From an uncultured Alphaproteobacteria bacterium (GTDB lineage Bacteria; Pseudomonadota; Alphaproteobacteria; SHVP01), in the NCBI GenBank assembly GCA_964611585.1, contig CAZTAK010000001.1:11132-75131 (forward strand): 64,000 bases of DNA, given 5' to 3'. Shown here in pieces: positions 5,267-60,388 of this stretch. The translations under genes were made by a program, and so were the position numbers. The notes below the pieces were generated by a model, which saw only the letters and a program-made list of their open reading frames with translations, did no database searches and was not told where the DNA came from. The first letter of the stretch is position 1; each line of letters starts with the position of its first letter.

Positions 5267-6094
5267 ATGGACGCGCCAGACATGCCCACCTTGAAAGGAA
5301 AGTGCGCATTGATCACCGGCGGAGGACGCGGCATCGGCCGCGCCATCGCCGAACGCCTCGCTGCCGACGGCGCCGCCGTCGTGATCGTCGATTTCAACGG
5401 AACCACGGCCAGCGAGACCGCCCGGGCCCTCAGCGAATCGGGCGCGCGAGCCGCGTCGTTATGCGCCGATGTCGCTAATCCTGAAGCCGCCGCCGAGGCG
5501 ACGGCCCTTGCGGTAGGCACCTTTGATGGGCTCGACATTCTGGTCAACAACGCCGGCATCGCGCCCAACCGCCGCGTCCTCGACACCACTCTCGAGGAAT
5601 GGGAACGCGTCCTGCGCGTCAACCTGACCGGAACGTTTCTGTTTTCCAAAGCGGCCGCGCCGGCAATGGCTGATCGCGGCGGCGGAAAGATTGTCAATAT
5701 TGCGTCCGTTTCGGGGCAGCGCGGCGGCGTCGGGCGCGGCGCCTATGGAACCTCCAAGGCCGGCATCCTGATGCTGACGCGGATCATGGCGGTCGAATTC
5801 GCGTCCCTGAACATTGCCGTCAACGCCATCGCGCCCGGGCCGATCCGGACCGGCATCACCGATCACAGTGAAGGCACGGTAGCAGGCTACCTCGACCGGA
5901 TACCGATGCGGCGCTACGGCACCACGGACGCGGTGGCCGCCGCTGCCGCCTATCTCGTGTCCGAGGATTGCAGCTATACCACCGGGACGACGCTCAACGT
6001 GGACGGCGGGTTCGACGCCGCCGGGCTGATTTTTTCGCAAGACGAGCTGCGTGCGGCGGACCCGGCGCCGCGCGGCGCGGAAGGGATTCGATGA
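5267..6094 (+). CDS. SDR-family oxidoreductase (FabG-like)
   Basis: It has the TGGGRGIG Rossmann motif, NNAG, and the S...Y..AYGTSK catalytic tetrad. Its stop TGA overlaps the ATG of the next gene (ATGA). Confidence 0.85.
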   Translation: MDAPDMPTLKGKCALITGGGRGIGRAIAERLAADGAAVVIVDFNGTTASETARALSESGARAASLCADVANPEAAAEATALAVGTFDGLDILVNNAGIAPNRRVLDTTLEEWERVLRVNLTGTFLFSKAAAPAMADRGGGKIVNIASVSGQRGGVGRGAYGTSKAGILMLTRIMAVEFASLNIAVNAIAPGPIRTGITDHSEGTVAGYLDRIPMRRYGTTDAVAAAAAYLVSEDCSYTTGTTLNVDGGFDAAGLIFSQDELRAADPAPRGAEGIR

Positions 6095-7782
6095 CCAGCA
6101 AGATCACCGACGAAAATGCATTCTGGCGGACGCCACCGGGGGTTCAACGCGGCTACACGCAGGCGCGCTTCGGGCAGATTCATTACCGTTTCGCCCGCCC
6201 CGCCGAGGCGACCCAAACGCCGCTGATGTGCTTTCACCTGAGCCCGAGTTCGGGCCGGATCTACGCCCGCTTCCTGGCGGAAATGGGCAAGAACCGCCTG
6301 GCGATTGCCCCGGACACGCCGGGCTTCGGCGATTCGGACGTTCCGGCGGAGCCGCCCGAGATTGCCGACTACGCCGCCGCGATGGGCGAGGTTCTGGACG
6401 CGCTGGAAATCGAGACGGTCGATCTGATGGGCTATCACACCGGGTCGAAAATCGCGCTCGAACTCGCCCAACAACGCCCGGCACAGGTTCGCCGCGTGGT
6501 ACTGGTTTCGGCGCCGATCTATTCCGACGAGGAACTCGAAAGCCAGAAATCCCACTACGCCGGGCGCGAGGCCGACGACGCGGGCGATTTTCTCAAAGCG
6601 GCATGGGACGGACAGAAGCGCTGGCGCGCCAAGGACGCCCCCGACATTTTCGTTCACCGCGAGGTGGTGGAGGCGCTGCGGGGCGTCGACCATTCGTGGT
6701 GGGGCCATCGTGCCGCATTCCGCTATCCTCACGCCGACGCCCTGCCCAAGGTGCGCCAGCCGGTAACAATCCTGTGCCCGAAGGACGATCTGTACGAGCA
6801 AACTCTGCGCGCGGCGGATTACATCGACAACGGGCGGCTTCTGGAACTGCCGGACTGGGGCGGCCACGGCATGCTCGACATGCACACGGGCGAGGTCGCG
6901 CAAATCGTGCGGACGGTGCTGGACGGCCCCGAAGAGGCGCACCAACCGGCCGCCGCAAAGCTCGCCCCCGATCCCAGGCCGGGTGCCGACACCGGCTTTC
7001 GCAAGCGGTTCATCGACGGGCCCTACGGGCAGATTCATTTGCGCTATTCCGGGCCCGGAGCGCCCGCAGCGGCACCGCTTTTCTGTTTCCATTCGAGCCC
7101 CAATTCGGGCCTCAAATACAGCGCGATCCTCCGCATGCTGGGGCAGGAACGCACTGTCGTCGCCGTCGATACGCCCGGCTTCGGCGAATCCGAGGCCCCG
7201 GCCAAACCGCCCGAGATCGAGGACTATGCCACCACCATGGCCTACGTCATCGAAACCCTGGGCGCCGGGCCGGTCGACATCATGGGCTATCACACCGGAT
7301 CGGAAACCTGCATCGAGCTCGCGCGCCAGCGCCCCGACCTGGTGCGCAAGATCGTCATGAACTCGGCGCCGATCTTCAGCGATGAAGAACTCCAAGGGTT
7401 CCGCGATCTCTACGCGCCCGATCCGATTGCCGCGGACGGGTCGCACCTTGTCAGGTTCTGGCAACGGATGATCCCGTTCTACGGACCGACGGTGCCGCAC
7501 CCGATTCGGCAACGGAATTTCGCCGAAGGTCTGCGCGGCGGACCGATGTCGCACTGGGGCCACCGGGCCGCATTCAATTATCCGCTGGCGAAGAAGATGG
7601 CGGAGGTCGAAAACGAAATCCTCGTTATCAATCTCGACGACGACTTGAGAGAGCAGACCAAGCAAGCCGAAGGCATATTGCGCAACGGCCGCATTCACAC
7701 CATCGAAAAATACGGTCACGGCTGGTTCGACATCATTCCCGACGAAGCCGCGCGCATCCTGCGCGAATTCCTCGACGCTTGA
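6091..7782 (+). CDS. tandem-duplicated alpha/beta-hydrolase-fold protein (two ~280-aa repeats) with a non-canonical nucleophile elbow
   Basis: There is a clear internal duplication (LMCFHLSPSSG..DTPGFGDSD..DLMGYHTGSKIALELA // LFCFHSSPNSG..DTPGFGESE..DIMGYHTGSETCIELA). The HGXP-like and GxNuxG elbow positions read G-Y-H-T-G, with His where the Ser/Asp nucleophile normally sits. The gene is translationally coupled to the SDR gene. Confidence 0.8.
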   Translation: MTSKITDENAFWRTPPGVQRGYTQARFGQIHYRFARPAEATQTPLMCFHLSPSSGRIYARFLAEMGKNRLAIAPDTPGFGDSDVPAEPPEIADYAAAMGEVLDALEIETVDLMGYHTGSKIALELAQQRPAQVRRVVLVSAPIYSDEELESQKSHYAGREADDAGDFLKAAWDGQKRWRAKDAPDIFVHREVVEALRGVDHSWWGHRAAFRYPHADALPKVRQPVTILCPKDDLYEQTLRAADYIDNGRLLELPDWGGHGMLDMHTGEVAQIVRTVLDGPEEAHQPAAAKLAPDPRPGADTGFRKRFIDGPYGQIHLRYSGPGAPAAAPLFCFHSSPNSGLKYSAILRMLGQERTVVAVDTPGFGESEAPAKPPEIEDYATTMAYVIETLGAGPVDIMGYHTGSETCIELARQRPDLVRKIVMNSAPIFSDEELQGFRDLYAPDPIAADGSHLVRFWQRMIPFYGPTVPHPIRQRNFAEGLRGGPMSHWGHRAAFNYPLAKKMAEVENEILVINLDDDLREQTKQAEGILRNGRIHTIEKYGHGWFDIIPDEAARILREFLDA

Positions 7783-7799
7783 CGGGACAAAGCCGCCCC

Positions 7800-9470
7800 A
7801 TGACACGAATTACCCGCCATTTCGTGACCGTGGGTACGCGCCGGGTGCATTACCGGCGCGCGGGATCGGGGCCCCCGGTAGTGATGCTGCACCCGAGCCC
7901 AAGCTGTTCAGGCAGCCTGACTGGCACCATCGATGTGTTCGCGAAGGCCTTCACCGCCATTGCGCTCGATACGCCCGGTTATGGGCTCTCCGATCTGTTG
8001 CCGATGGAGCAGCCGGAGATCCCCGATTTCGCCGAAGCGCTGGCCGAAACCCTCGATGCGCTGGGCATCGAACGCTGCGGCGTGTTCGGATCGCACACCG
8101 GCGCCTCTATCGCCATCGAATTTATCCGGCGCTATCCCGAACGCGCCTCGATCACGGTGTTCGACGGCTACCCCGGCTATACCGACGACTATCGCGCCGA
8201 CATGCTGGAATCCTACCTGCCGCCCTACGTTCCGAAGTGGGACGGGACTCATCTGTTGACGACGTGGATGAAGTACCGCGAGCAATTCCTCTATTCGCCC
8301 CCCTTCCGGCACCACAAGGAAAACCGCTCCAACGCAGTGCCGCGCGATCCGGTCACGACTCAGGCCGCTGTGACGCCCCGGTTGATGACGGGACGGAACT
8401 ACAACATCGGCTACTCGTCGGTGTTCCGGTACAAGAGCCTTGAGGCGCCGTACGACCTCAAATCTCCCACCTGCTTTGCCGCGCGTGAGGACGATTCGCT
8501 GGTCAGGTCGCTCGGCCTGCTGGACGATTTGCCCGAGGGCTGCTGGAAGGAAGTGCTGGGACGCGACGAGGCCGCCGCCGCCGAACGCTATGCGGAGATC
8601 TTGGCCGAGCGGCTGGAACCGGGCGATACGCCGGCCCCGCCCGACCCGGAAAACCTGCCCGGCCGGGTGCAATACTCCTACACCGATTTTGGCGCCGGCC
8701 AGGTGATGGTGCGCCGCGCCGGCAATGGCGACCGGCCCCTGGTGATGATGCCGCCTCTGCCGGGCACCTCGGACCTTCTCGAGACGCTGATGCTCGCGCT
8801 CGCGCCCGCGCGCGCGGTTATCGCGTTCGACCCGCCGGGCAACGGCGATTCGGACGACTTCCTGCCGCACACGATCGAAGCGTGCGCCGGCGCGCTGGGC
8901 CAGGTTGCAACCAAGCTGGCGGTGGGCGAATTCGACCTCTATGGCCGCAATGCGGGTGCTTCGGTGGCAGCCGCGTTCGCGCACGCCAACCCGGACCGCG
9001 TCGGCAAACTGATTCTCGACGCGCCGCTGGCCCTCGACACTGCCACGGCGGAGGCCTGGCAGGCCGGCTACGCCCCCGCCATCGAACCGAAATGGGACGG
9101 ATCGCACCTGATCGCGCTCTGGCATCAGCTCCGGGCCGAACAATTGTTCTCGCCGTGGTTCAACGAAACAGCCGCAGGCATTCGCGACGTCGAACCCGAA
9201 ATCGACCCCGATTTTCTGTCGCAAAAACTAACCGGCATCCTCAAGCATTACGGCACCTATCACGAATTCTGGGATGTGGCGTTCGAGTATCCAGGGCTCG
9301 ACACGCTGTCTCGTATCGGCCACACGACCCTCGTTTGCGCGCGCAAGAACGACCTGTTCGCCGCCTTCGCCGATGACGCCGCCGAAGCCGTTCCGAAGGC
9401 ATCGCGCGCCACCCTTCCGGCGGAAACACAGGGTGCCGCGCGCGTCATCGCGGAATTCCTGGATTCCTGA
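7800..9470 (+). CDS. tandem-duplicated alpha/beta-hydrolase-fold protein, paralog of the upstream gene
   Basis: It has the same two-repeat architecture (VVMLHPSPSCSG..DTPGYGLSD..FGSHTGASIAIEF // LVMMPPLPGTSD..DPPGNGDSD..LYGRNAGASVAAAF). Alternative TTG start at 7779 overlaps the upstream stop; ATG 7800 was chosen. Confidence 0.75.
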   Translation: MTRITRHFVTVGTRRVHYRRAGSGPPVVMLHPSPSCSGSLTGTIDVFAKAFTAIALDTPGYGLSDLLPMEQPEIPDFAEALAETLDALGIERCGVFGSHTGASIAIEFIRRYPERASITVFDGYPGYTDDYRADMLESYLPPYVPKWDGTHLLTTWMKYREQFLYSPPFRHHKENRSNAVPRDPVTTQAAVTPRLMTGRNYNIGYSSVFRYKSLEAPYDLKSPTCFAAREDDSLVRSLGLLDDLPEGCWKEVLGRDEAAAAERYAEILAERLEPGDTPAPPDPENLPGRVQYSYTDFGAGQVMVRRAGNGDRPLVMMPPLPGTSDLLETLMLALAPARAVIAFDPPGNGDSDDFLPHTIEACAGALGQVATKLAVGEFDLYGRNAGASVAAAFAHANPDRVGKLILDAPLALDTATAEAWQAGYAPAIEPKWDGSHLIALWHQLRAEQLFSPWFNETAAGIRDVEPEIDPDFLSQKLTGILKHYGTYHEFWDVAFEYPGLDTLSRIGHTTLVCARKNDLFAAFADDAAEAVPKASRATLPAETQGAARVIAEFLDS

Positions 9471-11686: not shown

Positions 11687-12118
11687 TTAGCCGTGGTGGA
11701 AGTCGTGCATCTCGGCCATGTCGTTCCAGACCCATTGCTCGGCGAACTTGCCGCCGCGGATCAGGAAGCGGTCGATGTAGCGGATGCCTGAATACGGCGA
11801 TCCGTCGAGCCATTTCCCTTGCAGGGTGCCGATACTGAAAACAACGGTGCCATCGGGTGTCTCGGCCACCTCGAAGCGTTCGAATGTCTTGCTGGTGCCG
11901 GTGTAGCGGCTTTTTGAAAACGCCGCCAGGTCTTCCAGTTTCGTGTAGCGCCGCGCGCCCGGGAAAAGCATCTCGAAGTCCGGCGCCAGCATCGTGCGCG
12001 CGGTGTCGAAATCGCGCGCCTCCATGGTCCGCAAATATGTCGCGACCATGCGTTCCGGCGAGCCTTCGGGCAAATCTTCGGGTTCGAGGGATTTCTGTTT
12101 CAGCGCGGCTTCGGCCAT
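11687..12118 (-). CDS. SnoaL-like / NTF2-like fold protein
   Basis: The 143-aa ORF has an NTF2-like pattern (VATYLRTMEARDFDTARTMLAPDFEMLFPG..RFLIRGGKFAEQWVWND). Confidence 0.55.
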   Translation of the reverse strand: MAEAALKQKSLEPEDLPEGSPERMVATYLRTMEARDFDTARTMLAPDFEMLFPGARRYTKLEDLAAFSKSRYTGTSKTFERFEVAETPDGTVVFSIGTLQGKWLDGSPYSGIRYIDRFLIRGGKFAEQWVWNDMAEMHDFHHG

Positions 12119-12285: not shown

Positions 12286-12457
12286 GGAATCGAACTGGGG
12301 GGTCGCGCCCCAAGAGCGGTTCCGTTCTAATCGGAACCACTCTCGCTTTTTTGTCGCTCACGGCAGCGGACCGATTGGTCCGCGCCTGCGCGGGCGCGCC
12401 GCACAAGCGGCGGGCCGCCTCGCGGCCACGGGCGATTCCAGACGAACCGGAATCGCC
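12286..12457. repeat. intergenic REP/MITE-like repeat element, copy B
   Basis: It shares about 120 bp with copy A (1263-1536), including a hairpin (GAGCGGTTCCG..CGGAACCACTC) plus T-run and the terminal GATTCCAGACGAACCGGAATCGCC inverted repeat. Short terminal inverted GGAATCG motifs are present. It ends exactly at the stop codon of the minus-strand ORF. Confidence 0.6.
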
Positions 12458-12694
12458 CTAGTCGTCGAGATCGACGCGCAGAAGCCCCATCGACCAGACG
12501 AACAGCCGATACCACACGAACCCCAGTCCAAACAGCGCCGCCAGCACCCCCGGCAACATCACCCAAGCCAGCCCACGCGCCTCGAGCCACGCAAAGCCCT
12601 GGACCTGAAACCACCACAGTCCGCCGACCGCCGCCGCGAAAACGACTGCGCCCGCAAATGCGAGCGAAACCAATATCTTGTAGCGTACCGCCAT
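12458..12694 (-). CDS. small hypothetical membrane protein (2 TM)
   Basis: The 78-aa ORF has two hydrophobic helices. It abuts repeat copy B. Support is weak. Confidence 0.3.
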   Translation of the reverse strand: MAVRYKILVSLAFAGAVVFAAAVGGLWWFQVQGFAWLEARGLAWVMLPGVLAALFGLGFVWYRLFVWSMGLLRVDLDD

Positions 12695-12939: not shown

Positions 12940-14217
12940 ATGGGAATGACGCTTTCCGAGAAGATAATCGCCAGGGCCTGCGGGCAGGATTCGGTGCGGC
13001 CGGGTGAAATCGTGACCTGCAAGGTCGATCTCGCCATGACCCACGATTCGAGCGGGCCGCGCCGCCAGGCGCCGCGCCTGAAGGAACTCGGCGTCAAGGT
13101 GTGGGACCCGGACAAGGTGGTGATCCTTACGGATCACTACGTTCCGGCGGTCGATGCGCTGAGCGCGGAGATCCTCAAACTCACACGCGACTGGGTCAAA
13201 GAACAGGGGATAAAGAATTTCTACGACATGCAGGGCATCTGCCATGTCGTGCTGCCCGAGCGCGGCCACCTGCACCCGGGCCAGTTCGCCGTCGGCGGTG
13301 ATTCCCACTCGCCCACCGGGGGCGCGTTCGGGACCTTCATGATCGGGGTCGGCGCCACCGATATGACCGGCGTTCTGGCGACCGGCGAAATCTGGGTCAA
13401 CGTACCGCCGACCATCCTGGTGCGCTGGACCGGCGATCTTCCCGAATACGTCACCGCCAAGGACATGATGCTGCGGCTGTGCGGCGAGATCGGCCTTAAC
13501 GGCGCCAACTACAAGGTCGTTGAGTTCGCCGGCAATGGCGTGAGCGCGCTCTCGATGGACGAACGCATGGTGCTGCCCAACATGACCGCCGAAGTCGGCG
13601 CCAAAACCGGCATCATTGCCCCCGACGCGGTGACGGTGGAATGGCTAAAAGCCGCGGGCGCGGAAACAGCGGGCGCGCTGGACTGGTTTTCGGACGAGGA
13701 CTGCGAGTACGAGAGTGTGTTGGAATTCGATGCCTCCACACTGTCACCACAGGTGGCGGCGCCGCACAGTCCGGCCAATGCCGCGCCGGTAGAGGACTTC
13801 AAGGACGTTGCCGTCGATCAGGCCTACATCGGCGCCTGCACCGGCGCGAAACTCGAAGACCTGCACATGGCGGCCGAGATCGTCCGCGGCCAGACCGTCG
13901 CCGAGGGAACGCGCTTTCTGGTGGCGCCCGCCTCAACGCGAATTACGGCGCAAGCCGCCGCCGACGGGACGCTGGCGACGCTGACCGCGGCAGGTGCAAT
14001 CTTGCTGCCGTCCGGTTGCGGCGCGTGTGCGGGCCTCGGCGCGGGCGTGTTGTCGGCAGGCGAGACCTGCATCTCGTCCACCAACCGTAATTTCAAGGGC
14101 CGCATGGGCCCCTCGGACGCTTCCGTTTATCTGGGATCGCCCTATGCAGTGGCGGCCGCGGCGGTGGCCGGGCACATCGCCGATCCCCGCGACATCAGCA
14201 ACCGGAGGGCATCATGA
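12940..14217 (+). CDS. aconitase-family dehydratase large subunit, archaeal-type LeuC-like (LeuC/homoaconitase/dimethylmaleate hydratase family)
   Basis: The 425-aa product aligns along its length with small-type LeuC (MGMTLSEKI, VDLAMTHD, GGDSHSPTGGAFG, the Fe-S cysteines in SGCGACAG and ISSTNRNFKGRMG). Confidence 0.85.
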   Translation: MGMTLSEKIIARACGQDSVRPGEIVTCKVDLAMTHDSSGPRRQAPRLKELGVKVWDPDKVVILTDHYVPAVDALSAEILKLTRDWVKEQGIKNFYDMQGICHVVLPERGHLHPGQFAVGGDSHSPTGGAFGTFMIGVGATDMTGVLATGEIWVNVPPTILVRWTGDLPEYVTAKDMMLRLCGEIGLNGANYKVVEFAGNGVSALSMDERMVLPNMTAEVGAKTGIIAPDAVTVEWLKAAGAETAGALDWFSDEDCEYESVLEFDASTLSPQVAAPHSPANAAPVEDFKDVAVDQAYIGACTGAKLEDLHMAAEIVRGQTVAEGTRFLVAPASTRITAQAAADGTLATLTAAGAILLPSGCGACAGLGAGVLSAGETCISSTNRNFKGRMGPSDASVYLGSPYAVAAAAVAGHIADPRDISNRRAS

Positions 14218-14720
14218 GCGGTACGGACGGCGGCGGCACCGCCTGGGTCTATGGCGACGACATCGACACGGATTCGCTGGCGCCGGGGCTCTATCTCAAA
14301 GGGTCGATGGAGGAGATGGCGAAGCATTGCCTCGAAGCGATCGACCCCACCTTCGCCGCCGAATCCAAGGAAGGCGACTTCGTGGTGGCGGACGAGAATT
14401 TCGGCATCGGTTCGTCGCGCGAACAGGCGGCGCAGTGCCTGTCGATATTGGGCGTCAATGTGGTGCTGGCCAAGAGTTTCGCGCGTATCTTTTACCGCAA
14501 CGCTTTCAACGTCGGTGTCGTGCCGCTGGTGTTCAAAGACGCGGACAAAATCAAGAAAGGCGACCGCCTGCGGGTCGATGCGGCTGCGGGCACGATCGAA
14601 AATCTTACCAGGAACGAGACCTACACCTGCGAGACCGTACCACCGCACCTGATGGAAATCGTTGCCGACGGCGGCCTGATGCCGCATCTGAAAAAGAAAC
14701 TGAAAGGAAAAACGACGTGA
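14214..14720 (+). CDS. aconitase-family dehydratase small subunit (LeuD-like)
   Basis: ATGA overlap with the upstream stop. The product has the LeuD-like swivel domain (VYGDDIDTD, GIGSSREQA). Confidence 0.85.
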   Translation: MSGTDGGGTAWVYGDDIDTDSLAPGLYLKGSMEEMAKHCLEAIDPTFAAESKEGDFVVADENFGIGSSREQAAQCLSILGVNVVLAKSFARIFYRNAFNVGVVPLVFKDADKIKKGDRLRVDAAAGTIENLTRNETYTCETVPPHLMEIVADGGLMPHLKKKLKGKTT

Positions 14721-15601
14721 CCGATTATCAATCGCTCAAGAGCCAGCTTGCAGGCGATGACATCATCGTCGCGCCCGGCTGCTATGACGCCTATTCGGCA
14801 ATGATGATCGCCAAGGCCGGCTTCAGCGTGGCCTACATCTCCGGCGCCGGCGTGTCGTTTACGCGCATCGGACGTCCCGATATCGGCCTGGTCAGCATGC
14901 ACGAAGTGGCCGAGACCGTGAGCGCGATCGCAGAATTCAACGACATCCCGCTGGTCATCGACGGCGATACCGGATTCGGTAATGCGCTCAACGTAATGCG
15001 CACGGTGCGCCTGTTCGAACGCGCGGGCGCGAGCGCGATTCAGCTCGAAGACCAGACCATGCCCAAGCGCTGCGGTCACCTGAGCGGAAAGTCGCTGGTG
15101 CCGGATGCGGAAATGGTCGGCAAGATCAAGGCCGCGACCGACGCACGGCGCTCGGACCAAACACTGATCATCGGCCGCACCGACGCGATCGCGGTCGAGG
15201 GGTTCGAACGCGCGCTCGAGCGCGCCGAACGCTACGTCGAGGCGGGCGCGGACGTCCTGTTCATCGAGGCGCCGCAGACCGACGATCAGATGAAGGCCCT
15301 GACGGCGCAGTTCAAAGGCCGGGTCCCGCTCCTGGCGAACATGGTCGAGGGCGGCAAGACGCCGCTGAAAAGTGCGGCCGAGTTGCAGGCGCTCGGCTAT
15401 TCGCTGGTGATTTTTCCGGGCGGGCTGATCCGGGCCTATTCGTTCATGGCCGCGGAATACCTGAAGAGTTTACGCGAAAACGGCACCACGGCGCCCTACC
15501 GCAACCGGATGCTGGATTTCGATCAGCTCCAGGAGGTGCTGGGAACGGCCTCGGTGCTGGAGGCGGGCGGGCGCTACGACGCCGAGAACTTCGAGGCCTG
15601 A
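14717..15601 (+). CDS. isocitrate lyase/PEP mutase superfamily lyase (2-methylisocitrate lyase / 2,3-dimethylmalate lyase-like)
   Basis: The GTG start overlaps the LeuD-like stop (GTGA). The product carries the ICL/PEPM signature KRCGH plus DGDTGFG and IEDQ. Confidence 0.8.
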   Translation: MTDYQSLKSQLAGDDIIVAPGCYDAYSAMMIAKAGFSVAYISGAGVSFTRIGRPDIGLVSMHEVAETVSAIAEFNDIPLVIDGDTGFGNALNVMRTVRLFERAGASAIQLEDQTMPKRCGHLSGKSLVPDAEMVGKIKAATDARRSDQTLIIGRTDAIAVEGFERALERAERYVEAGADVLFIEAPQTDDQMKALTAQFKGRVPLLANMVEGGKTPLKSAAELQALGYSLVIFPGGLIRAYSFMAAEYLKSLRENGTTAPYRNRMLDFDQLQEVLGTASVLEAGGRYDAENFEA

Positions 15602-15629
15602 CAAGCGAGGCATACGAAGCGGACGCGCG

Positions 15630-16496
15630 ATGACCGAACGCTTCACGTTTTCGAGCCCGGACGCCCTGGCGGCACGCATCCCTGACGGCGCGCACCTGGC
15701 GATCCCGGCCGACCGGCGCGGCGTGTCGATGGCAACGACGCGCGCCCTTATCCGCCGCAGCGCGCGCGATCTCCGGCTCGTCGCCGTCCCCACCAGCGGG
15801 CTTCAGGCTGATCTCCTGATCGGCGCCGGCGCAGTCGCCGAAATCGAAACATCGGCCGTCTCGCTGGGCGAATACGGCCCGGCGCCGCGGTTTGGCGAGG
15901 CCGTCGAGCAGGGACGCATCGTCATCTTGGACGCTACCTGCCCCGCCATTCACGCCGGATTGCACGCCGCCGAAAAAGGCATCCCGTTCATGCCGCTCAG
16001 GGGAATTCTGGGCTCGGACCTGCTGGTCCACCGCCCCGACTGGACAGTGATCGAAAATCCCCTGGGGCCGGTGCCGGAAGAACGGCCCGGCACCACGGCA
16101 GAGGACTTTGCCGATCCCATCGTCATTCTGCCGGCGATCCGGCCCGATTTCGCGCTCTTTCATGTGCCGCTCGCCGACCGGGCCGGCAATATCTGGGTCG
16201 GGCGCAACCGCGATCTCATTACCATGGCGCATGCGGCGCGCGAGACCCTGGTGACAGTGGAAGCAATCGCCGATCACGATCTCATGGCCGATCGCGAATG
16301 GGCGGCGGGGACGCTTTCGTCGTTCTATGTGAGTGGCATCGCCGTTGCCGAGAAGGGCGCCTGGCCGACGGCGATGCCGGGCACCTACGAAGAAGACGCA
16401 GAGCACATGCGCCGCTACGCCGAACAAGCCCGCAGCGGCGAGGGATTCGCGGCCTACCTCGAGGAATTCGTTTTTCAGGACCTTTCCCTCGGGTAG
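15630..16496 (+). CDS. CoA-transferase family I, subunit A
   Basis: The 288-aa product resembles glutaconate/3-oxoadipate CoA-transferase A subunits. It sits immediately upstream of the B subunit. Confidence 0.7.
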   Translation: MTERFTFSSPDALAARIPDGAHLAIPADRRGVSMATTRALIRRSARDLRLVAVPTSGLQADLLIGAGAVAEIETSAVSLGEYGPAPRFGEAVEQGRIVILDATCPAIHAGLHAAEKGIPFMPLRGILGSDLLVHRPDWTVIENPLGPVPEERPGTTAEDFADPIVILPAIRPDFALFHVPLADRAGNIWVGRNRDLITMAHAARETLVTVEAIADHDLMADREWAAGTLSSFYVSGIAVAEKGAWPTAMPGTYEEDAEHMRRYAEQARSGEGFAAYLEEFVFQDLSLG

Positions 16497-16501
16497 CGCT
16501 C

Positions 16502-17224
16502 ATGGATGCCGGGCCCGAAGAGTTCCTGATCTGCGTCATCGCGCGGCTTCTCGCCGGCACGCGCCATATCGCGGTCGGCGCCCTGTCGCCGATACCCGGA
16601 TCGGCGGCGCTGTTGCACCAGGCTGAGAGCCGCGAGCCGGTTCGCGTCTCGGTTCTCGACAGCCGGCGCAATTTCTGGTCGGACGGCAGCAAGGAACTGT
16701 TCGACTGCGCGGCGCAGGGACGCATCGACGCCTTTTTCCTCGGCGGCGCCCAGATCGACGGCCAGGGCAACGTCAACCTCGTCGGCGTCGGTGGTTATCC
16801 CCGGCCGAAGACGCGCTTTTCGGGATCGTTCGGATCGGCCTATCTCTATTTTCTCGTGCCGAGGGTGATTCTGTTCCGAGAGGAGCACACGCCGCGGACG
16901 CTGGTCGATAAAGTCGATTTCATATCGAGCCCCGGAACGAGCCCGGACAACGTCTATCGCCGCGGCGGGCCCTCGGCGCTGGTGACGGGAAAAGCGCTGT
17001 TCACCTTCGATGAGGCGGGGCGCCGCTTTCGCCTCGCCAGCAGCCATCCGGGATACACCGCGCCGGACATCGAGGCGGCGACAGGATTTGCCTTCGAGAC
17101 GCCTGCCTCGGTCCCGGCAACAGCGGCCCCCGATGCGGCCACGCTCAATCTGTTGCGGGGACCCGTGGCCCGCGAGATCGCCGAGACCTACCCCCGCTTC
17201 GCCGCACGGGTTTTCGGCGACTAA
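16502..17224 (+). CDS. CoA-transferase family I, subunit B
   Basis: The ATG lies 6 nt after the subunit A stop. The B-subunit-like sequence (GGAQIDGQGNVNLVGVG) is present. Confidence 0.65.
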   Translation: MDAGPEEFLICVIARLLAGTRHIAVGALSPIPGSAALLHQAESREPVRVSVLDSRRNFWSDGSKELFDCAAQGRIDAFFLGGAQIDGQGNVNLVGVGGYPRPKTRFSGSFGSAYLYFLVPRVILFREEHTPRTLVDKVDFISSPGTSPDNVYRRGGPSALVTGKALFTFDEAGRRFRLASSHPGYTAPDIEAATGFAFETPASVPATAAPDAATLNLLRGPVAREIAETYPRFAARVFGD

Positions 17225-17377
17225 CCGGCGATTGAGGCAAAAAGTCCCCATTAATTGAGGGTTTTGGCGGCGGGGTACGCGTTCGTCCGGATCGGTCATA
17301 ATGATTCTAATTCTCGTCCCGCGAAAGGAACGTGCGCCATGAGTGAAGCAACCTAGTCCGGATTCGGCGAACACGGC

Positions 17378-18496
17378 ATGCGCGCCGATATGACCCACGA
17401 CGAGACCGCGCAGATGGATTTTATCATGAGCCTCTACCGGCACCTCGGGCGCAACATCGTGCCCGGGCACCGCGAGGTTTATGACGGGCGCGTCAAACCC
17501 GCGTTCGAACGCAAGAACGGCCGGGCGCCGAAAACCCGCCACGAAGTTCGCAAGGCAATGCTGGACGACCCCTACTTTCAGTTCTGGAGCCATCTGCGCC
17601 TTTACAGCCAGGCCAAGAGCTATGACCTGAGGCGCGAGATCGTCGACCGGCAATTGGACGACCTGATCGAGCGCGCCAAACCACGCGCGTCCGACAAGGG
17701 CACGGTGGAACTCGATGCCGATTTCGAGATTCCGAAATATCAGGCGGCGTTCGACATGCACTGGATGCCGGGCAGCTTCTACACCGAATTCGCCGAGGAC
17801 GACGTCGCCGCGGGCGTCATGTATGACACCGGCGGGCTCTATATCGCGCTGTCAGGTTCGATCGGCGCCTACAACGACGGCGCCGGCCATGCGGTGGTGC
17901 ACTGGCTCAACGAAAATCACCCGGATTTCAAACCGAAGCGCGTGCTCGACGAGGGCTGCACCGCAGGCGGCAATACATTGCCCTTCAAGTATGCCTAGCC
18001 CGATGCGGAGATAACCGCCATCGACATCGGCGCACCGGTACTGCGCTATGCCCACCGCCGGGCCGAGAGCCTCGGCTATGAAGTCCATTTCTCGCAGCAG
18101 AATGCCGAAGAAACGAGATATGAAGACGAGAGCTTCGATCTTGTGGTTTCGACCATGTTTTTGCACGAAACCTCGAACAAGGCGGTGCACAACATCGTTG
18201 CCGAATGCCACCGGCTGTTGAAACCGGGCGGGCTGATGGTGCATGTCGAGCAACCGCCGTTCGCGCGCTTCGACGATCCCTTCGATCAGTTCGTGCGCGA
18301 CTGGGACACGCACAACAACAACGAGCCGTTCTGGGGCCCGATGCACGACATGGACCTGCCCCAGGTAGCGGTGAAGGCGGGCTTCGCGCGCGATGACGTC
18401 ATCATGGAAATGGCGAAATATTGCGCCCCCACCAAAGAGAACCCCTACCGCGAGGCGCCGGGCGGCTGGTTCATCTTCGGTGCCTGGAAACGGTAA
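17378..18496 (+). CDS. class I SAM-dependent methyltransferase; reading frame interrupted by an in-frame TAG at 17996-17998
   Basis: ORFs 17378-17998 and 18143-18496 are in the same frame. Methyltransferase motif I (VLDEGCTAGG) is followed by KYA-TAG-PDAEITAIDIG and then by DLVVSTMFLHE and LLKPGGLM (post-I motifs) after the stop. Confidence 0.6.
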
Positions 18497-19264: not shown

Positions 19265-19490
19265 CGGGCCGTTACGCGGCAAATTGCCGCCCGGCGGCGG
19301 GGCGGCGGCGCCGGCGACGGTCCGATCTCTACGGTTTAGGCGGCGCGCCAAGCGCGCATCAAGTTCGACCGGTTTACGCGGCGCGCCCAGCGCGAATCAT
19401 GTTCGACCGGCTTACGCGGCGCCACAGGCGCCACGGTCCGGTCTCTCGGCTTACGCGGCGCCTCGGGGCGCCACGGTCCGGTCGCTATTG
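19265..19490. repeat. tandem array (about 5 units) of a 38-39 bp GC-rich repeat containing GGCGCC...GGCGCC palindromes
   Basis: The units cggtttaggcggcgcgccaagcgcgcatcaagttcgac, cggtttacgcggcgcgcccagcgcgaatcatgttcgac, cggcttacgcggcgccacaggcgccacggtccggtctct and cggcttacgcggcgcctcggggcgccacggtccggtcgct are contiguous. The array lies between the 3' end of a deacetylase gene and the 5' end of a lipoprotein gene. Confidence 0.7.
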
Positions 19491-20450
19491 CTGGCTCTTC
19501 CAGCTATCGAGGATTTCCGATGCGGTCGCGGTCCACACGCCCGACTTGCTGGTCAAATAGTCGAGCACCTGCTCCAGGAACCGGATGCGGTGCGGCTGGC
19601 CCGACATCCACGGATGAATGGTAAGCGCCATGATGCGCCCGCCCTGGGTCCCGGCCTCGGCATGCAGGGTGTCCAGCTGGTCCTTCACCTGCTGGACGAA
19701 TTCATCGCCCGTCTGCTTGTAGAAGAACAGGATCGTCGCATCCGAAATCCAGTGCTGGTGCGGCATCGCCGTCACCTCGCCCGATTTGGTGCGGAACGGG
19801 TAGGGCATGTCGTCGTTGATCCAGTCGCACAGGTAGTCCACGCCCTCGGCCGCCACCAGGTCCGGTGTCGCCCAGGATTCCGAACGCGCCGGCGAAAGCC
19901 AGCCGCGCACGGGCTGGCCCGACATTTCGCGCAACGTCGATAGCGATTCCTGCACCTGCACCTTTTCTTCCGATTCGTCGAGGCCGGTGTAATGCAGTTT
20001 CGCCATGTTGACACCGTGGGCCATGATTTCCCAGCCGCGCCGGGTCACCTCGTCGACCAGGAACGGGTTGCGTTTGGCAACGTCGGAATTCATCGCCACC
20101 GTCGCCTTGATGCCGCTATCGTCCAAGGCCTTGGCGACGCGGTAGAACCCGACCCGGTTGCCGTAATCGCGCAGCGTATAGTGGCGCAGGTCCGGGTAGG
20201 GCGTCACCATGCTGCCCTGGGCCTTGAACGGTTTTACCGGCGTATCGAGCGGGAAGAATTCCAGCACCGGCGTCACCCACAACGCGATGCGGGCGCCATT
20301 CGGCCAAACGACGGGCTTGCGCCGCGGCAGGATCGACCAGTCGTAACGGTCGTGATCCATGCCGTAACTGCGGTGATCGTAAACGAGATAGCTGTCCGGC
20401 AGCGAATGAGTGTGCTGGTCGTCGCTGGTGGCATCAATCGGCGGGCGCAT
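19485..20450 (-). CDS. polysaccharide-deacetylase-fold hydrolase of the PuuE (allantoinase-like) family
   Basis: The product is paralogous to the upstream gene (WPNGARIALWV..YGNRVGFYR..HG.N). The start is 2 nt after the upstream stop. Confidence 0.7.
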   Translation of the reverse strand: MRPPIDATSDDQHTHSLPDSYLVYDHRSYGMDHDRYDWSILPRRKPVVWPNGARIALWVTPVLEFFPLDTPVKPFKAQGSMVTPYPDLRHYTLRDYGNRVGFYRVAKALDDSGIKATVAMNSDVAKRNPFLVDEVTRRGWEIMAHGVNMAKLHYTGLDESEEKVQVQESLSTLREMSGQPVRGWLSPARSESWATPDLVAAEGVDYLCDWINDDMPYPFRTKSGEVTAMPHQHWISDATILFFYKQTGDEFVQQVKDQLDTLHAEAGTQGGRIMALTIHPWMSGQPHRIRFLEQVLDYLTSKSGVWTATASEILDSWKSQQ

Positions 20451-26239: not shown

Positions 26240-28120
<1,881 letters not shown>

Positions 28121-56257: not shown

Positions 56258-56510
56258 AAACGGACGACCTTTCGTGGACTTGGTGCCGCGCGGCACAGAA
56301 AACCGCCGCACCCCGGCAGAGCAGACAAGCTCCACCCGTTTCTGGACGCGGTAAGAGTGGGTCCCTATTATTCCGCCCCAAGGCGTGTTGTCCACCGCCA
56401 AACCCGGAAGCCGGAGCCGCATCGGCGCTCGTCCTTCCGGGCTGCCGTTTCCGGGCGCTACCGGAACACAGGCCCGGGTCGGGGCCGCGCCGCCAGGGAG
56501 GAATCAGTCG

Positions 56511-58589
56511 ATGCAATTGGTTGGTGTCGATGTCGGGGGCACGTTTACCGACATCGTCTATACGGATACGGACGATAACCGGACCATCATCCACAAGGTC
56601 CCGACGACACCCGAGGACCCGTCGAAGAGCGTCATGCAGGGGCTTTACGAATTGTGCGAGCGCAATGGGATCGACCGCAACGGGGTCGATCATGTGCTAC
56701 ATGGCACCACCATTGCCACCAATGCCGTGCTCGAAAATGACGGCGCGCATACCGGCATGATCACCACCAAGGGCTACCGCGATATTCTGCACATCGGCCG
56801 GCATCAGCGCCCACAGCACTATTCGATCATGCAGGAAATCCCCTGGCAGAACCGGCCTCTGATCCGGCGCCGCCACCGCAAGACCGTGACCGAACGTATT
56901 GCGGCGCGGGGCGACGTGCTGGCGCCGCTGAACGAAGACGAAGTGCGTATCGCCGCCCGCGCGCTGAAGGACGAAGGCGTCGAGTCGATTGCGGTGTGTT
57001 TCCTGTTTTCCTATATCGACCCCGGCCACGAAGAGCGCGCCGCCGAGATCGTGCGCGAGGTGTACCCCGAAGCCTTCGTCACGACCTCGTCCTCGGTGAC
57101 GCCCCAGTTCCGCGAGTTCGAGCGCTTTACCACCGCGGCGATGAACGCCTTTGTCGGCCCCAAGGTACGGACCTACGTCTCGAAACTCGCGAACAGCATC
57201 CGCGACGGCGGGATGAAGGCCGATCTGCATATCATGGGCTCGAACGGCGGGATCGCAACGGCGGGCCTTGTCGCCGAACGCCCGGTGCTGACGCTGCTGT
57301 CGGGACCGGCGGCGGGCGTCCTTGGCGGGGCGTGGTGCGGCGAGGTCGCGACACGCGAAAAACTCATCACCTTCGATGTCGGTGGAACTTCGGCCGACAT
57401 CGGTATCGTCACCGAAGGGCGGTTCGGCGAAGCGACCGCGCGCGATACCTGGATCGCAGGATTTCCGTTGATGGTGCCGATGATCGACGTTCATTCGATC
57501 GGCGCCGGCGGCGGCTCGATCGCGTGGCGCGATTCGGGCGGCACCTTCCGGGTCGGCCCGCGCAGCGCCGGATCGCAACCGGGCCCCGCCGCCTACGGGC
57601 GCGGCGGCAAGTTGCCGACGGTAACCGACGCCAACGTGGTTCTGGGACGGCTCAGCGCCGACAATTTTCTGGGCGGCGAAATGGACCTCGATGTCGAGGC
57701 GGCGACGCGGGTGATTTCCGCCTTCGCGAAGGAACTCGATCTCGGACTGCATGACTGCGCCGAAGGAATATTGACAATCCTCAACGCCAATATGGCGAAC
57801 GCGATCCGCTCGCGTACCGTTCAGAAGGGTATTGACCCGCGCGACTATGCGCTGGTCGCCTTCGGCGGCGCGGGGCCCTTGCATGGGGTGGCGGTGGCGG
57901 CGGAAATGGGAATCCAGGAAGTTTTGATTCCGCCTTACCCGGGTATCACCTCCGCGGTCGGCCTGTTGACGACCGATCACAAGTACGATGCGATTCGTAC
58001 CGAATTCCAAGTCCAGGGCGAAGTCGATACCGCCCGCCTCATGCGCGACTTTGAGGCGATGGAATCGGGGCTCGCCAACCAGTTCCGCGAAGAGGGCCTC
58101 GATGCCGATCAGGTAAGCTTCCTCCGTTCGGGCGATTTGCGCTATCTCGGCCAGGGCTATGAGCTCCGGATCGACCTTTCCGAAGGCGACCTCGACGCGG
58201 CCGCCCTAAAGGCCCTGTGGGCACAGTTTCATGGCTCCCATCTCAAGGACTACGGCCACAACTACCCCGATACGGAAATCGAAATCGTCAATATCCGCGT
58301 TTCGGGCGTCGGCACCATGCCCAAGATCGGAACCCCCTCGCTCGATGGTGCGAAACGGTCATTCGAGGCGGCGCTGGTCAAGCGCGATGCCTGCCACTTC
58401 CGCGTGGACGGCGTGCTCGACAGTTTCGAGACCGCGTTCTACCAGCGCGAGACCCTGCCGCTGGAACAGGACATCGCCGGCCCCGCCATCATTTTGCAAA
58501 AAGACACCACCACCGTAGTGCCGCCTGGCGCCACCGCCCGCGCCGATACCGGCGGCAACCTGTTCATTCGCCTGGGAGGAACACCATGA
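56511..58589 (+). CDS. hyuA: hydantoinase/oxoprolinase family, subunit A (ATP-dependent N-methylhydantoinase A-like)
   Basis: An RBS (GGGAGGAA) is present. The product begins [16 protein letters not shown] and has the hydantoinase_A domain. Confidence 0.85.
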
Positions 58590-60388
58590 CCGGCCCAAGC
58601 CCCGTCGCCGGGCGCGGCGACAACGGCCCTGCCGTCGATCCGATCACGGCGTCGGTAATTCAGGGCGCGCTTGAAAGCATCGCCATCGAGATGGGCTACA
58701 AGCTGATGCGTATGGCGTATTCGTCGATCATCCGGGAATCGGAAGACTTCGGCGCCGCGCTCGTCGATACCAAGTGCCGCCAGTTGTGCGAAAGCAAGCA
58801 GTCGACGCCGCTGCAATCGGGTCCGATCCCGGGTTACATCAAGGGCATTCTGAAAACCCTGAAGGCGCGCGGCGAAGCGATCGAGCCCGGCGACGTCATC
58901 ATGCACAATGACCCCTACGGTGGTTCGTCCCACGGCCCGGACGTGCTGTTCGCAGTGCCGGTGTTTCACGACGGTTCCCTGATCGGATTTGCGGCCACGA
59001 CCGCGCATCATCTGGATATCGGCGCGCTGTCACCCGGCAGTTGCGGCATCGTCGATGCGATGGACGTCTATGCCGAGGGCCTGCAGTTCAAGGCGATCAA
59101 GGTGTACGACCAGGGCGTCAAGAACGACATGGTGTGGCACATGTTGCGCGACAATATCCGCGCCTCGCACCTGGTGGTAGACGACATGGAAGCGCAGATC
59201 GCCGCCGCTCGAATCGGTGGCGAGCGGTTCCTGGAACTTGCGAACCGATATGGCATCGACACCGTCAACGCCGCCGCCGAGGCATTGATGGATGCATCCG
59301 AGCGCATGATGCGCGACGCCATCGCCAAGATTCCGGACGGAACCTATTCGGCCACCGGCCATATCGACGGTTACGAACTGAGTGACAATCCGAAAGAAAA
59401 GGAACTTCCCATCGTCGTCACCGTCACCGTCGAGGGCAATGATATGACCGTCGACCTGACCGGCACGGCGGATCAGATCGACCTGCCGATCAACATGCCG
59501 CTCGAGGGCACGGTCGATGTCGCGATCTGGCTGACGGTGCGCTCGATCCTGGTGGATACTGCCGTCTACGGCCATGTTCCGCAAAATTCAGGACTTACCC
59601 GGCCGATCAAGATCATCGTGCCGCCGGCGACGCTGGCCAACCCGGAATTTCCGGCGCCGGTCATCGCGCGTTTCTCGCCCGGCGTCATCATTGCCGACAC
59701 CCTGATGCGGGCGTTGGCGCAAGCCGTGCCGCGACAAGTCTCGGCGGGGGTCGGAAATCTCAAGGTGATCGCGTTCTCGGGCCTCGAAAAGGGGCGCCAC
59801 TGGGTCCACATGGAAATCTTCGAGGGCGCCTACGGCGGGCGCCATGGCATGGACGGGATGGATGCGGTCGATACGCTCTATGCCAACACTCGCAACAACC
59901 CGATCGAAGACATTGAGACCCACCTGCCGCTGCGGGTGGATCGCTATGAACTGCGCGAGAACATGGTGCCGGCCGGCGAATGGCGGGGCGGCATTGGTGC
60001 GATCCGCGAGTTTTCGTTCAAGGCCGACGGCGGCTATTCGGTCGAGGGCGAAGGCCACATGTTCAGGCCTTGGGGCTTTTCAGGCGGCGCCGAAGGCGAT
60101 CCGGCTGAACTTCAGTTCCGCACCGCGGCCGGGGTGGCGTCGGATCTGCCCTCGAAGCTCCCCTACCAGCCGGCTACCACCGGCGATACCTTCCTCGCGG
60201 TCGGGCCCTGCGGTGGCGGCTACGGCGACCCGCTGGCGCGCGACCCGGAGAAGGTCCGCGACGACGTGCTCGACGGGTATATCGGGACCGAGACCGCGCT
60301 TGCCGATTATGGCGTTGTCCTGACCGAGGCGCTTGAAGTCGACGCCGCCGCCACCGAAACGACCCGCAGCGAACGCCGCGCCGCGTGA
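58586..60388 (+). CDS. hyuB: hydantoinase/oxoprolinase family, subunit B
   Basis: ATGA overlap with the hyuA stop. An RBS (GGAGGA) is present. The hydantoinase_B domain is present ([12 protein letters not shown]). Confidence 0.85.

Follow-up and report, generated by a model that had tools for sequence, protein, structure and literature searches.

We analyzed a stretch of 64,000 nucleotides from an uncultured alphaproteobacterium (contig CAZTAK010000001.1), hereafter called the window, and in it a unit of five genes at positions 12940-17224, which encodes a two-subunit LeuCD-like hydratase, a lyase of the isocitrate lyase/phosphoenolpyruvate mutase (ICL/PEPM) family, and two proteins with matches to the CoA_trans family, subunits A and B (A/B). 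According to the reading that we favor, and to which we give about an even chance of being correct, the LeuCD-like hydratase and the ICL-family lyase would be the terminal enzymes of a widespread and uncharacterized catabolic route, accompanied by an A/B pair that lacks the catalytic Glu of its relatives. The five genes are as follows:

12940-14217, + strand: LeuC-like large subunit of the hydratase, 425 aa
14214-14720, + strand: LeuD-like small subunit of the hydratase, 168 aa; ATGA overlap with the LeuC-like gene
14717-15601, + strand: ICL/PEPM-family lyase, 294 aa; GTG start, GTGA overlap with the LeuD-like gene
15630-16496, + strand: CoA_trans subunit A, 288 aa; 28-nt gap after the lyase gene
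16502-17224, + strand: CoA_trans subunit B, 240 aa; 5-nt gap after the subunit A gene

The original prediction, made from the letters of the window, had described these genes as translationally coupled, and the ATGA and GTGA junctions and the 28-nt gap were as described, but the last gap is 5 nt and not 6. The start of subunit B that a 6-nt gap implies, at 16503, is out of frame and was rejected in favor of 16502. All five open reading frames show the GC3 bias typical of real genes or sit in the frame that shows it, and products of the same five lengths were also called by independent gene callers on eight public contigs with an identical lyase. The order of the five genes is kept in diverged relatives, with 64-81% identity per protein in loci L001-L003 and 63-79% in locus L088, indicating that the arrangement is not a chance juxtaposition. 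No terminator-like sites of note were found between the five genes; around the operon, riboswitch, regulator and terminator signals did not rise above background, and Rfam gave no match. From these sequence features we conclude that the five genes are real, and they are predicted to be co-transcribed. Pfam and NCBIfam searches of the five proteins upheld the family-level assignments made before, with Pfam matches to Aconitase (334 bits) for the first gene, Aconitase_C/LEUD_arch for the second, PEP_mutase/ICL for the third, and CoA_trans for subunits A and B (33 and 46 bits, both weak), neither of which had an NCBIfam match.

Among solved structures the lyase scores 190-199 bits against methylisocitrate lyases (MICL) and the carnation petal death protein (PDP), 162 bits against the fungal dimethylmalate lyase (3fa3) and oxaloacetate acetylhydrolase, and about 100-114 bits against PEP mutases, phosphonopyruvate hydrolase, and the PA4872 oxaloacetate decarboxylase. 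It carries the motifs of the lyase branch, EDQTMPKRCGHLSGK, DGDTGFG, RTDA, and IEAP, which hold the Cys loop, the DxD/E Mg site, and the catalytic Arg and Glu, and the gating loop EDQxxPKRCGHLxGK with its lyase-type Cys is present in 120 of the 120 closest homologues. In Coxiella burnetii PrpB, the residues listed as catalytic or essential are Y40, D81, E110, K116, C118, R152, and E182 (bioRxiv 10.1101/2025.01.06.631558); in an alignment with this protein all of them are kept, as is the DxD motif, and H108 is replaced by Gln. Because of its scores, which are closest to MICL and PDP, and its Cys-containing catalytic loop, the protein is classified as a C-C lyase of the MICL/PDP branch, and the same sequence comparison rules out both PEP mutase and oxaloacetate decarboxylase, the latter being what PGAP calls it. 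The original prediction had named a grouping with either of these two families as a result that would speak against it, and no such grouping was found (101-124 bits versus the 190-199 bits for MICL and PDP).

The hydratase fits no curated function. The LeuC-like subunit has NCBIfam matches at the subfamily level only (LEU2, 433 bits versus a cut-off of 611; HacA_Meth, 437 versus 550), and its best solved relative, at 398 bits, is the large subunit of the Methanocaldococcus jannaschii isopropylmalate/citramalate isomerase, which a review credits with maleate hydratase activity (PMC8307300). The Fe-S ligand cysteines C300, C360, and C363 are all there, in keeping with a small two-subunit enzyme of the aconitase type. 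The LeuD-like swivel-domain subunit contains the GSSRE motif (as 'GIGSSREQA') and belongs to the TIGR02087 LeuD/DmdB family (175 bits), its scores against the equivalogs are low (leud, 157 versus a cut-off of 246; HacB, 148-158 versus 230), and its best solved relative is the homoaconitase (HACN) small subunit 2pkp. A flexible loop in LeuD determines the choice of substrate (PMC7308503). In the window this loop reads YLKG and aligns with YLRT of homoaconitase and YLVY of isopropylmalate isomerase (IPMI), so it is basic like that of HACN without being identical, and a Lys or Arg occupies the position in every orthologue whose loop was recovered. By these scores and this loop, the hydratase would be neither an IPMI (LEU2/leud) nor a methanogen homoaconitase equivalog. 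The loop Arg of homoaconitase reportedly recognizes the distal carboxylate, as Jeyakanthan et al. are said to have found in 2010, and by analogy with that role the Lys in the window would point to a third acidic group on the substrate. Together with the MICL-like lyase, the loop Lys hints that a substrate with a third acidic group is favored, which we take as a lead only.

A biosynthetic function can be weighed against these data, either as a LeuCD or homoaconitase of the leucine, isoleucine, or lysine pathways, or as a PEP mutase of phosphonate biosynthesis paired with an aconitase. The closest solved large subunit is indeed the M. jannaschii isomerase, PGAP labels homologues of the hydratase leuC and leuD, and one related locus (L170) adjoins a PEP mutase-nucleotidyltransferase gene. 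However, the scores stay under every IPMI and HACN equivalog cut-off, no leuA, leuB, or lys genes lie nearby, the lyase has the Cys-containing lyase loop and reaches 106-124 bits against PEP mutases, and in cultured strains the cluster is accompanied by GntR regulators and uptake transporters. We therefore regard a biosynthetic role as very improbable. It had been argued earlier that this LeuCD-like pair, being of the small type, is probably not for leucine. The catabolic rather than leucine context stands, but the argument from size is weak on its own, because Sulfitobacter, Azospirillum, and Roseomonas have large-type LeuCD in the same kind of cluster.

The catabolic context became apparent from lyase loci in other genomes. 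The survey comprised 86 loci from metagenomes and public assemblies with orthologues 58-82% identical to the lyase, onto which a protein panel was mapped; 53 loci were evaluable for direct flanks and 40 had both flanks present. The orthogroup has as its signatures Q[LI]EDQxxPKRCGH, ANMVEGG, and IFPGG. Directly upstream of the lyase, small-type LeuC-LeuD genes were found in 26/53 loci and genes for Liv-type ABC transporter ATPases in 14/53. Directly downstream, the same 53 loci carried HyuB (24 loci), an AllB/dihydropyrimidinase-like amidohydrolase (6 loci), an amidase-signature (AS) amidase (1 locus), or subunit A (1 locus). When whole loci were considered, at least one amide or cyclic-amide hydrolase was present in 31 of the 40 and the A/B pair in 2. 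After HyuB come a caprolactamase-like HyuA, an isochorismatase-family hydrolase resembling RutB and BiuH, and a FAD_binding_2 oxidoreductase resembling flavocytochrome c and TcuA; such FAD oxidoreductases, and transporters, are also common in the lyase clusters. The partner hydrolases thus come from five unrelated families: caprolactamase-like HyuAB, AllB-like amidohydrolases, PuuE-like deacetylases, isochorismatase-like amidases, and AS amidases. On plasmids of the cultured bacteria Azospirillum oryzae, Sulfitobacter sp. SK012, Roseomonas haemaphysalidis, and Tistrella mobilis, the cluster comes together with genes for a GntR regulator and for a transporter of the ABC, TRAP, or TTT type. The LeuCD of the first three is of the large bacterial type and 33-37% identical to that of the window, and PrpD-family dehydratases lie beside the lyase in Tistrella and Roseomonas. 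Since each component can be swapped for an analogue (two LeuCD types, PrpD-family proteins, five hydrolase families), these loci argue for one pathway, in which amide or cyclic-amide hydrolysis would be followed by hydration and aldol cleavage. The earlier proposal of a hydratase-lyase couple with a catabolic function is supported by the frequency of small-type LeuCD upstream of the lyase, by the amide hydrolases, and by the lyase-type loop. In the literature searched, which covered the cluster, maleate hydratase, and cyclic-imide metabolism, no characterization of the cluster's pathway or substrate was found.

The MICL-like features of the lyase raise the alternative of a module similar to the methylcitrate cycle, with a 2-methyl-cis-aconitate hydratase and a 2-methylisocitrate lyase that would serve propionate or a related acid. 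In NCBIfam and the PDB the lyase matches PrpB/MICL best, the K-R-C-G-H loop, the Mg ligands, and the Arg and Glu are kept, so that only one of the MICL catalytic residues is missing (His108 of C. burnetii PrpB), the basic residue of the LeuD loop fits a tricarboxylate, and the PrpD-family genes of Roseomonas and Tistrella would not be out of place. Yet the prpB match (TIGR02317) reaches 297 bits, under the curated equivalog cut-off of 354. Moreover, the 'TEFG' of MICL is 'VEGG', with Gly for Phe, the orthogroup's 'ANMVEGG' resembling 'ANMIEGG' of PDP, and the Gly-Gly of 'IFPGG' stands for the Leu/Arg of MICL 'YPLS/YPRS' at the product-contacting position. There is no prpC, prpD, or prpE in or near the operon, and propionate oxidation offers no role for the amide hydrolases that accompany the lyase. 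The lyase is thus probably not a bona fide PrpB, and we consider a methylcitrate-like module quite unlikely.

The families, motifs, gene order, and co-occurrence are observed, and it is from these that we infer a chemistry, an order of steps, a type of substrate, and a role for A/B. In the favored reading, a nitrogen-containing cyclic amide or imide, or a half-amide, would be taken up, and the ring would be opened by PuuE-like hydrolases that the window encodes (see below). An isochorismatase-like amidase would then free ammonia to leave a substituted cis-butenedioate of the maleate or aconitate type, probably with an extra carboxylate. To this, the Fe-S hydratase would add water, giving a 2-hydroxy-2,3-substituted succinate, whose C2-C3 bond would be cut by the lyase to yield a 2-oxo acid (of the pyruvate, glyoxylate, or 2-oxobutyrate type) and a carboxylic acid. 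A/B may act downstream on a CoA derivative, possibly of the acid released by the lyase.

A close parallel is the DmdAB hydratase and Dml lyase pair of nicotinate fermentation in Eubacterium barkeri, in which a small-type two-subunit hydratase of the aconitase family is likewise followed by an ICL/PEPM-family lyase. The substrate of DmdAB and Dml is a substituted maleate that arises from an N-heterocycle after ring opening and deamidation, and the same logic is proposed here. In contrast to that system, the window has no nicotinate-pathway genes, the candidate ring openers are HyuAB, AllB-like, or PuuE-like enzymes and not an enamidase, the Lys of the LeuD loop hints at an extra acidic substituent, and the fungal Dml 3fa3 scores below MICL and PDP. 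The analogy with DmdAB and Dml that had been drawn originally appears to name the right kind of chemistry, as the amide and cyclic-amide partners fit the N-heterocycle logic, but its CoA-transferase part does not hold. A second parallel is the maleate hydratase HbzIJ of Pseudomonas alcaligenes, a LeuCD-like enzyme that converts maleate or citraconate to D-malate or D-citramalate; unlike the hydratase proposed here, it serves the gentisate pathway, in which a D-malate dehydrogenase and not a lyase takes over its product. The initial steps resemble the cyclic-imide metabolism of Blastobacter, with its imidase and half-amidase, and the reaction of NicF, a maleamate amidohydrolase that is an isochorismatase-family amidase: the imide ring is opened and the half-amide hydrolyzed to a dicarboxylate. 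In those systems, however, succinate or maleate enters central metabolism or goes to maleate isomerase, and no LeuCD-type hydratase with an ICL-type lyase was tied to cyclic-imide or NicF pathways in the literature searched.

The A/B pair had been taken for a two-subunit family I CoA-transferase, and this claim did not survive. Both subunits match only GctAB (1poi), AibAB (5mzw), and IpdAB (6co6) among solved structures, at 38-80 bits, and for subunit A the scores with GctA, AibA, and IpdA are 57-76 bits. GctAB, a family I enzyme, has the same two-subunit architecture and fold family and is the best single-sequence match for both A and B. The Glu of the Gct beta subunit is catalytic and forms the enzyme-CoA thioester (PMC7756340). 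At the equivalent of GctB 'CHIIVESG', the window has 'VRVSVLDS' (followed by RR) and most other homologues have 'RVS[IV]LGS', so that the Glu of 'IIVESG' is replaced in 'VSVLDS' or 'SILGS'; in addition, B of the window is ~25 residues shorter in its N-terminal half. An alignment of 18 diverse B subunits contains no invariant Glu anywhere. Among the 118-120 closest B homologues, the position of the catalytic Glu is Gly in ~105, Asp in the six nearest only, Glu in one (P0052), and otherwise Asn, Ser, or His; subunit B from the five-gene cluster in L088 carries Gly. Asp53 of B was considered as a stand-in for the Glu and rejected, being limited to the six closest homologues and absent from L088. 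The Glu-to-Asp mutant of GctB is an acyl-CoA hydrolase, by which Asp53 could matter in the window clade.

AibAB, the 3-methylglutaconyl-CoA decarboxylase of Myxococcus xanthus, and IpdAB, a ring-opening hydrolase of Mycobacterium tuberculosis, are Glu-less heterodimers of the Gct family that act on preformed CoA thioesters and do not transfer CoA. The B profile aligns with AibB over its full length and the catalytic Glu is lost in both, but Cys56, which AibB has in place of the Glu and which mutagenesis showed to be dispensable (PMC7756340), is not kept; its place is taken by Ile/Val, Leu, or Gly, according to the register. In subunit A, 'ILDATCPAIH' aligns with 'REMDEGMV' of IpdA, which puts the Cys of a TCP motif at IpdA Glu105, a residue located by the E/A difference between 6co6 and 6coj, and this Cys is present in 18 of the 19 subunit A orthologues examined. 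Glu105 was reportedly identified as catalytic by Crowe et al. in 2018; its replacement by Cys sets the A family of the window apart from IpdAB, and identity to AibAB and IpdAB is low (57-110 bits) and the genomic context different. Residues ~146-158 of subunit A form a ~13-residue insertion (PVPEERPGTTAEDF) that is not in other aligned orthologues, and L088 has a different insertion there. Judged by its residues, A/B is probably not a family I CoA-transferase in mechanism and would be unable to run the family I ping-pong transfer. Most likely, it acts on an acyl-CoA made by another enzyme, in a decarboxylation, a hydrolysis, or another non-transfer reaction.

The A/B family is large, with >7,400 proteins at E <= 1e-3, and a search of reference genomes with subunit B yielded 80 loci, including ones in Paracoccus denitrificans, Comamonas composti, Bordetella pseudohinzii, and SAR116. 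Within 10 kb, LeuCD was found in 0/80 and the lyase in 1/80 (L021), so that A/B was rejected as a marker of the five-gene module; its link to the lyase is specific to a lineage. A family III CoA-transferase is encoded directly downstream of B in 18-20/80 genomes, which is consistent with a CoA ester made by another enzyme. In Comamonas composti (L028, 5254-8965) and Bordetella pseudohinzii (L040), A/B, a family III CoA-transferase, and a LysR gene adjoin a 3-sulfinopropionate-type set, consisting of a family III CoA-transferase, a 3-sulfinopropanoyl-CoA desulfinase, a cysteine-dioxygenase-like protein, and a 4HBT thioesterase, and these neighbors may hint at what the A/B family naturally acts on. 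A role for A/B in glutarate or glutaconate metabolism, drawn from a context resembling gcoT and gcdH, was dropped because the dehydrogenase nearby is this desulfinase by its NCBIfam match (652 bits versus a cut-off of 600). A further recurrent context is that of Paracoccus and relatives (L007, L012, L020, L034, and L015), in which the genes after A/B and a family III CoA-transferase encode a D-2-hydroxyacid dehydrogenase and an aldolase of class II (fuculose-phosphate type).

With these data the model of the original prediction can be assessed as a whole, that is, a DmdAB/Dml-type pair acting on a branched dicarboxylate together with a genuine family I CoA-transferase that activates the released or the incoming acid. 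It agrees with the Pfam and NCBIfam matches, including a small-subunit family named LeuD/DmdB, with the tight packing of the five genes and their joint presence in L001 and L088, and with the location of Asp53 at or beside the catalytic position of B. It conflicts with the loss of the catalytic Glu, which is Gly in most orthologues, those of L088 included, with the weak CoA_trans scores and the missing NCBIfam matches, with the family III CoA-transferases that accompany A/B and the rarity of the link between A/B and the lyase, and with the Lys of the LeuD loop, which suggests an extra acidic group and not a purely alkyl substituent. We consider this model unlikely.

The genes on either side of the five-gene unit are also relevant to the favored reading. 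They are:

11687-12118, - strand: SnoaL_2/DUF4440 (NTF2-like) protein by Pfam, 143 aa
12458-12694, - strand: predicted membrane protein, 78 aa, divergent from the LeuC-like gene
17339-18496, + strand: S-adenosylmethionine (SAM)-methyltransferase gene, probable pseudogene, in-frame TAG at 17354 and 17996
19485-20450, - strand: PuuE-like hydrolase 2 of the polysaccharide deacetylase family, 321 aa; Pfam Polysacc_deac_1, TIGR03212 PuuE 121 bits
20453-21394, - strand: PuuE-like hydrolase 1, 313 aa; TIGR03212 PuuE 139 bits
21414-22088, - strand: isochorismatase-family amidase-like protein (cysteine hydrolase), 224 aa; Pfam Isochorismatase, weak RutB and BiuH matches

The last three form a hydrolase operon on the opposite strand, 2.3-5 kb beyond the end of the subunit B gene. 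In NCBIfam both deacetylases match best to PuuE, an allantoinase that opens the hydantoin ring, with scores below the cut-off. In L131, LeuC, LeuD, the lyase, the isochorismatase, and two deacetylases form a run on one strand, in which the last three are 62%, 70%, and 64% identical to the proteins of the window, the final deacetylase gene (the 64% match to hydrolase 2) being truncated. Plasmid p1 of Burkholderia plantarii has the layout of the window, with two deacetylases and an isochorismatase divergent from GntR-LeuC-LeuD-FAD oxidoreductase-lyase, at 46-64% identity. Hydrolase 2 shares 55-68% identity with genes of L132, L021, and B. plantarii p1, hydrolase 1 is 59-60% identical to genes in L132 and p1, the isochorismatase-like protein shows 67% identity to L132 and 64% to p1, and related arrangements of these genes occur in L132, L122, and L166. 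SnoaL/DUF4440 homologues (43-68%) adjoin the lyase or LeuC in L001, L088, L089, L021, L085, L125, and L133, and in Sulfitobacter sp. SK012 such a gene opens the operon. Homologues of the 78-aa protein (34-51%) occupy the same position in L088, L089, L001-3, and L021; at this position, gene callers report elsewhere a product of 77-79 aa without a Pfam match. Because the hydrolase operon and the SnoaL and 78-aa genes are conserved neighbors, the functional unit in the window is probably larger than 12940-17224, and the boundaries drawn originally leave out these probable members.

The intact counterpart of the SAM-methyltransferase, a gene of 387 aa that follows subunit B in L002/L003, is 73% identical to it over 382 aa, and that of L021 is 67% identical. 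In L003 both TAG codons correspond to Trp, and in L021 the first corresponds to Phe and the second to Trp. The gene is a probable pseudogene (TGG to TAG twice), or the stops are an artifact of sequencing or of a mixed population; its homologues are conserved neighbors of A/B and of the PuuE-like genes in L003 and L021. Between the SnoaL and 78-aa genes there is a hairpin at 12313-12343 (+), with a perfect stem of 12 bp followed by CGCTTTTTTG (to 12350), which looks like an intrinsic terminator of the + strand, at a place where no obvious + strand gene ends. An imperfect inverted repeat of 21 nt at 12419-12469 lies over the stop of the 78-aa membrane-protein gene. A HyuAB pair at 56385-60388 (+) was rejected as the cluster's own, since the identity is 37% for HyuA and 29% for HyuB, and these are probably unrelated paralogues.

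Several observations weigh against the favored reading. A/B occurs without the lyase and LeuCD within 10 kb in 79/80 reference genomes, no CoA ligase or CoA-transferase was found in the 64-kb window, and the register of the B alignment near the catalytic site is uncertain by one residue, the window clade having D53 there, with neither register giving a conserved acid. Also, 2.3 kb separate the five genes from the PuuE-like/isochorismatase operon, which lies on the opposite strand and is missing at the five-gene L088 locus, and the cluster in the window has neither the HyuBA nor the FAD oxidoreductase genes that are typical elsewhere. As A/B is rarely near the lyase, its place in the operon could be historical and not functional. 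On that account the LeuCD-lyase genes and A/B would be unrelated modules, co-transcribed in one alphaproteobacterial lineage without a shared pathway, as would fit the varied contexts of A/B in Paracoccus, Comamonas, and Bordetella and its presence near the lyase orthogroup in only 2/40 loci. However, A/B and the lyase share an operon in the window, L001-3, and L088, and they are within 5-7 kb of each other in L021 (with a family III transferase and PuuE-like genes) and in L089, even though identity among the B subunits of these loci has dropped to 59-73%. The gaps in the window are 28 nt and 5 nt, and the same spot holds different CoA-level enzymes in other genomes: on B. plantarii p1 the lyase is followed by a porin, electron transfer flavoprotein (ETF), an acyl-CoA dehydrogenase, and a family III CoA-transferase, and LeuC has a carboxyltransferase and a biotin carrier as neighbors in L085 and L090, indicating that CoA-level processing beside the lyase is recurrent. 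A fortuitous fusion is in our view rather unlikely. That A/B, as the favored reading has it, handles the CoA ester of the acid released by the lyase has roughly even odds.

Substituted maleimides are ubiquitous oxidation products of chlorophyll, haem, and bilins, and hematinic acid and methyl-ethyl-maleimide occur naturally. We mention as a long shot that the cluster might serve the bacterial mineralization of such compounds. The gene set consists of a transporter, a hydrolase for cyclic amides, an amidase of the isochorismatase-like kind, the LeuCD-like hydratase, and the lyase, with an FAD oxidoreductase as an optional member. Hematinic acid would be opened and deamidated to 3-methyl-cis-homoaconitate, which would be taken by the hydratase, whose loop Lys corresponds to an Arg of homoaconitase. 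Pyruvate and glutarate would then be released by a MICL-like 'methylhomoisocitrate' lyase, and the Glu-less, Cys-bearing A/B would be a new biotin-independent enzyme acting on a CoA ester of the glutaryl or glutaconyl type.

Two regions of the window further from the operon deserve mention. At 5968-9470 (+), two adjacent genes encode large proteins of 604 and 563 aa, both with two stretches of alpha/beta-hydrolase fold, and they are followed by genes for a GT9 heptosyltransferase-like, a CMD-family, and a RidA-family protein; the first four of these five genes are syntenic in L001-L003, where the RidA-like gene was not listed. At 26240-28120 (-), a fusion of the alpha and gamma parts of a 2-oxoacid:ferredoxin oxidoreductase (POR/PFOR type) is encoded in what is apparently an alphaproteobacterial genome of the aerobic type, and this gene is syntenic in L003.

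The cluster of hydratase, lyase, and amide hydrolases spans Alpha-, Beta-, and Gammaproteobacteria from the sea, lakes, and soil, and its cultured carriers include Azospirillum, Sulfitobacter, Roseomonas, Tistrella, Burkholderia, and Cupriavidus. Its genes are currently annotated only as 'leuC/leuD', 'oxaloacetate decarboxylase', 'hydantoinase', and 'cysteine hydrolase', as a result of which metabolic reconstructions may read leucine biosynthesis or propionate metabolism into it. The A/B family, like AibAB and IpdAB, probably hides a non-transferase reaction and would then be systematically misnamed 'CoA-transferase' or 'CoA synthetase'. The enzyme families themselves are known; the pathway and its substrate are undescribed in the literature searched, and if that substrate were identified, a nitrogen-containing compound that is evidently common would gain a catabolic pathway.

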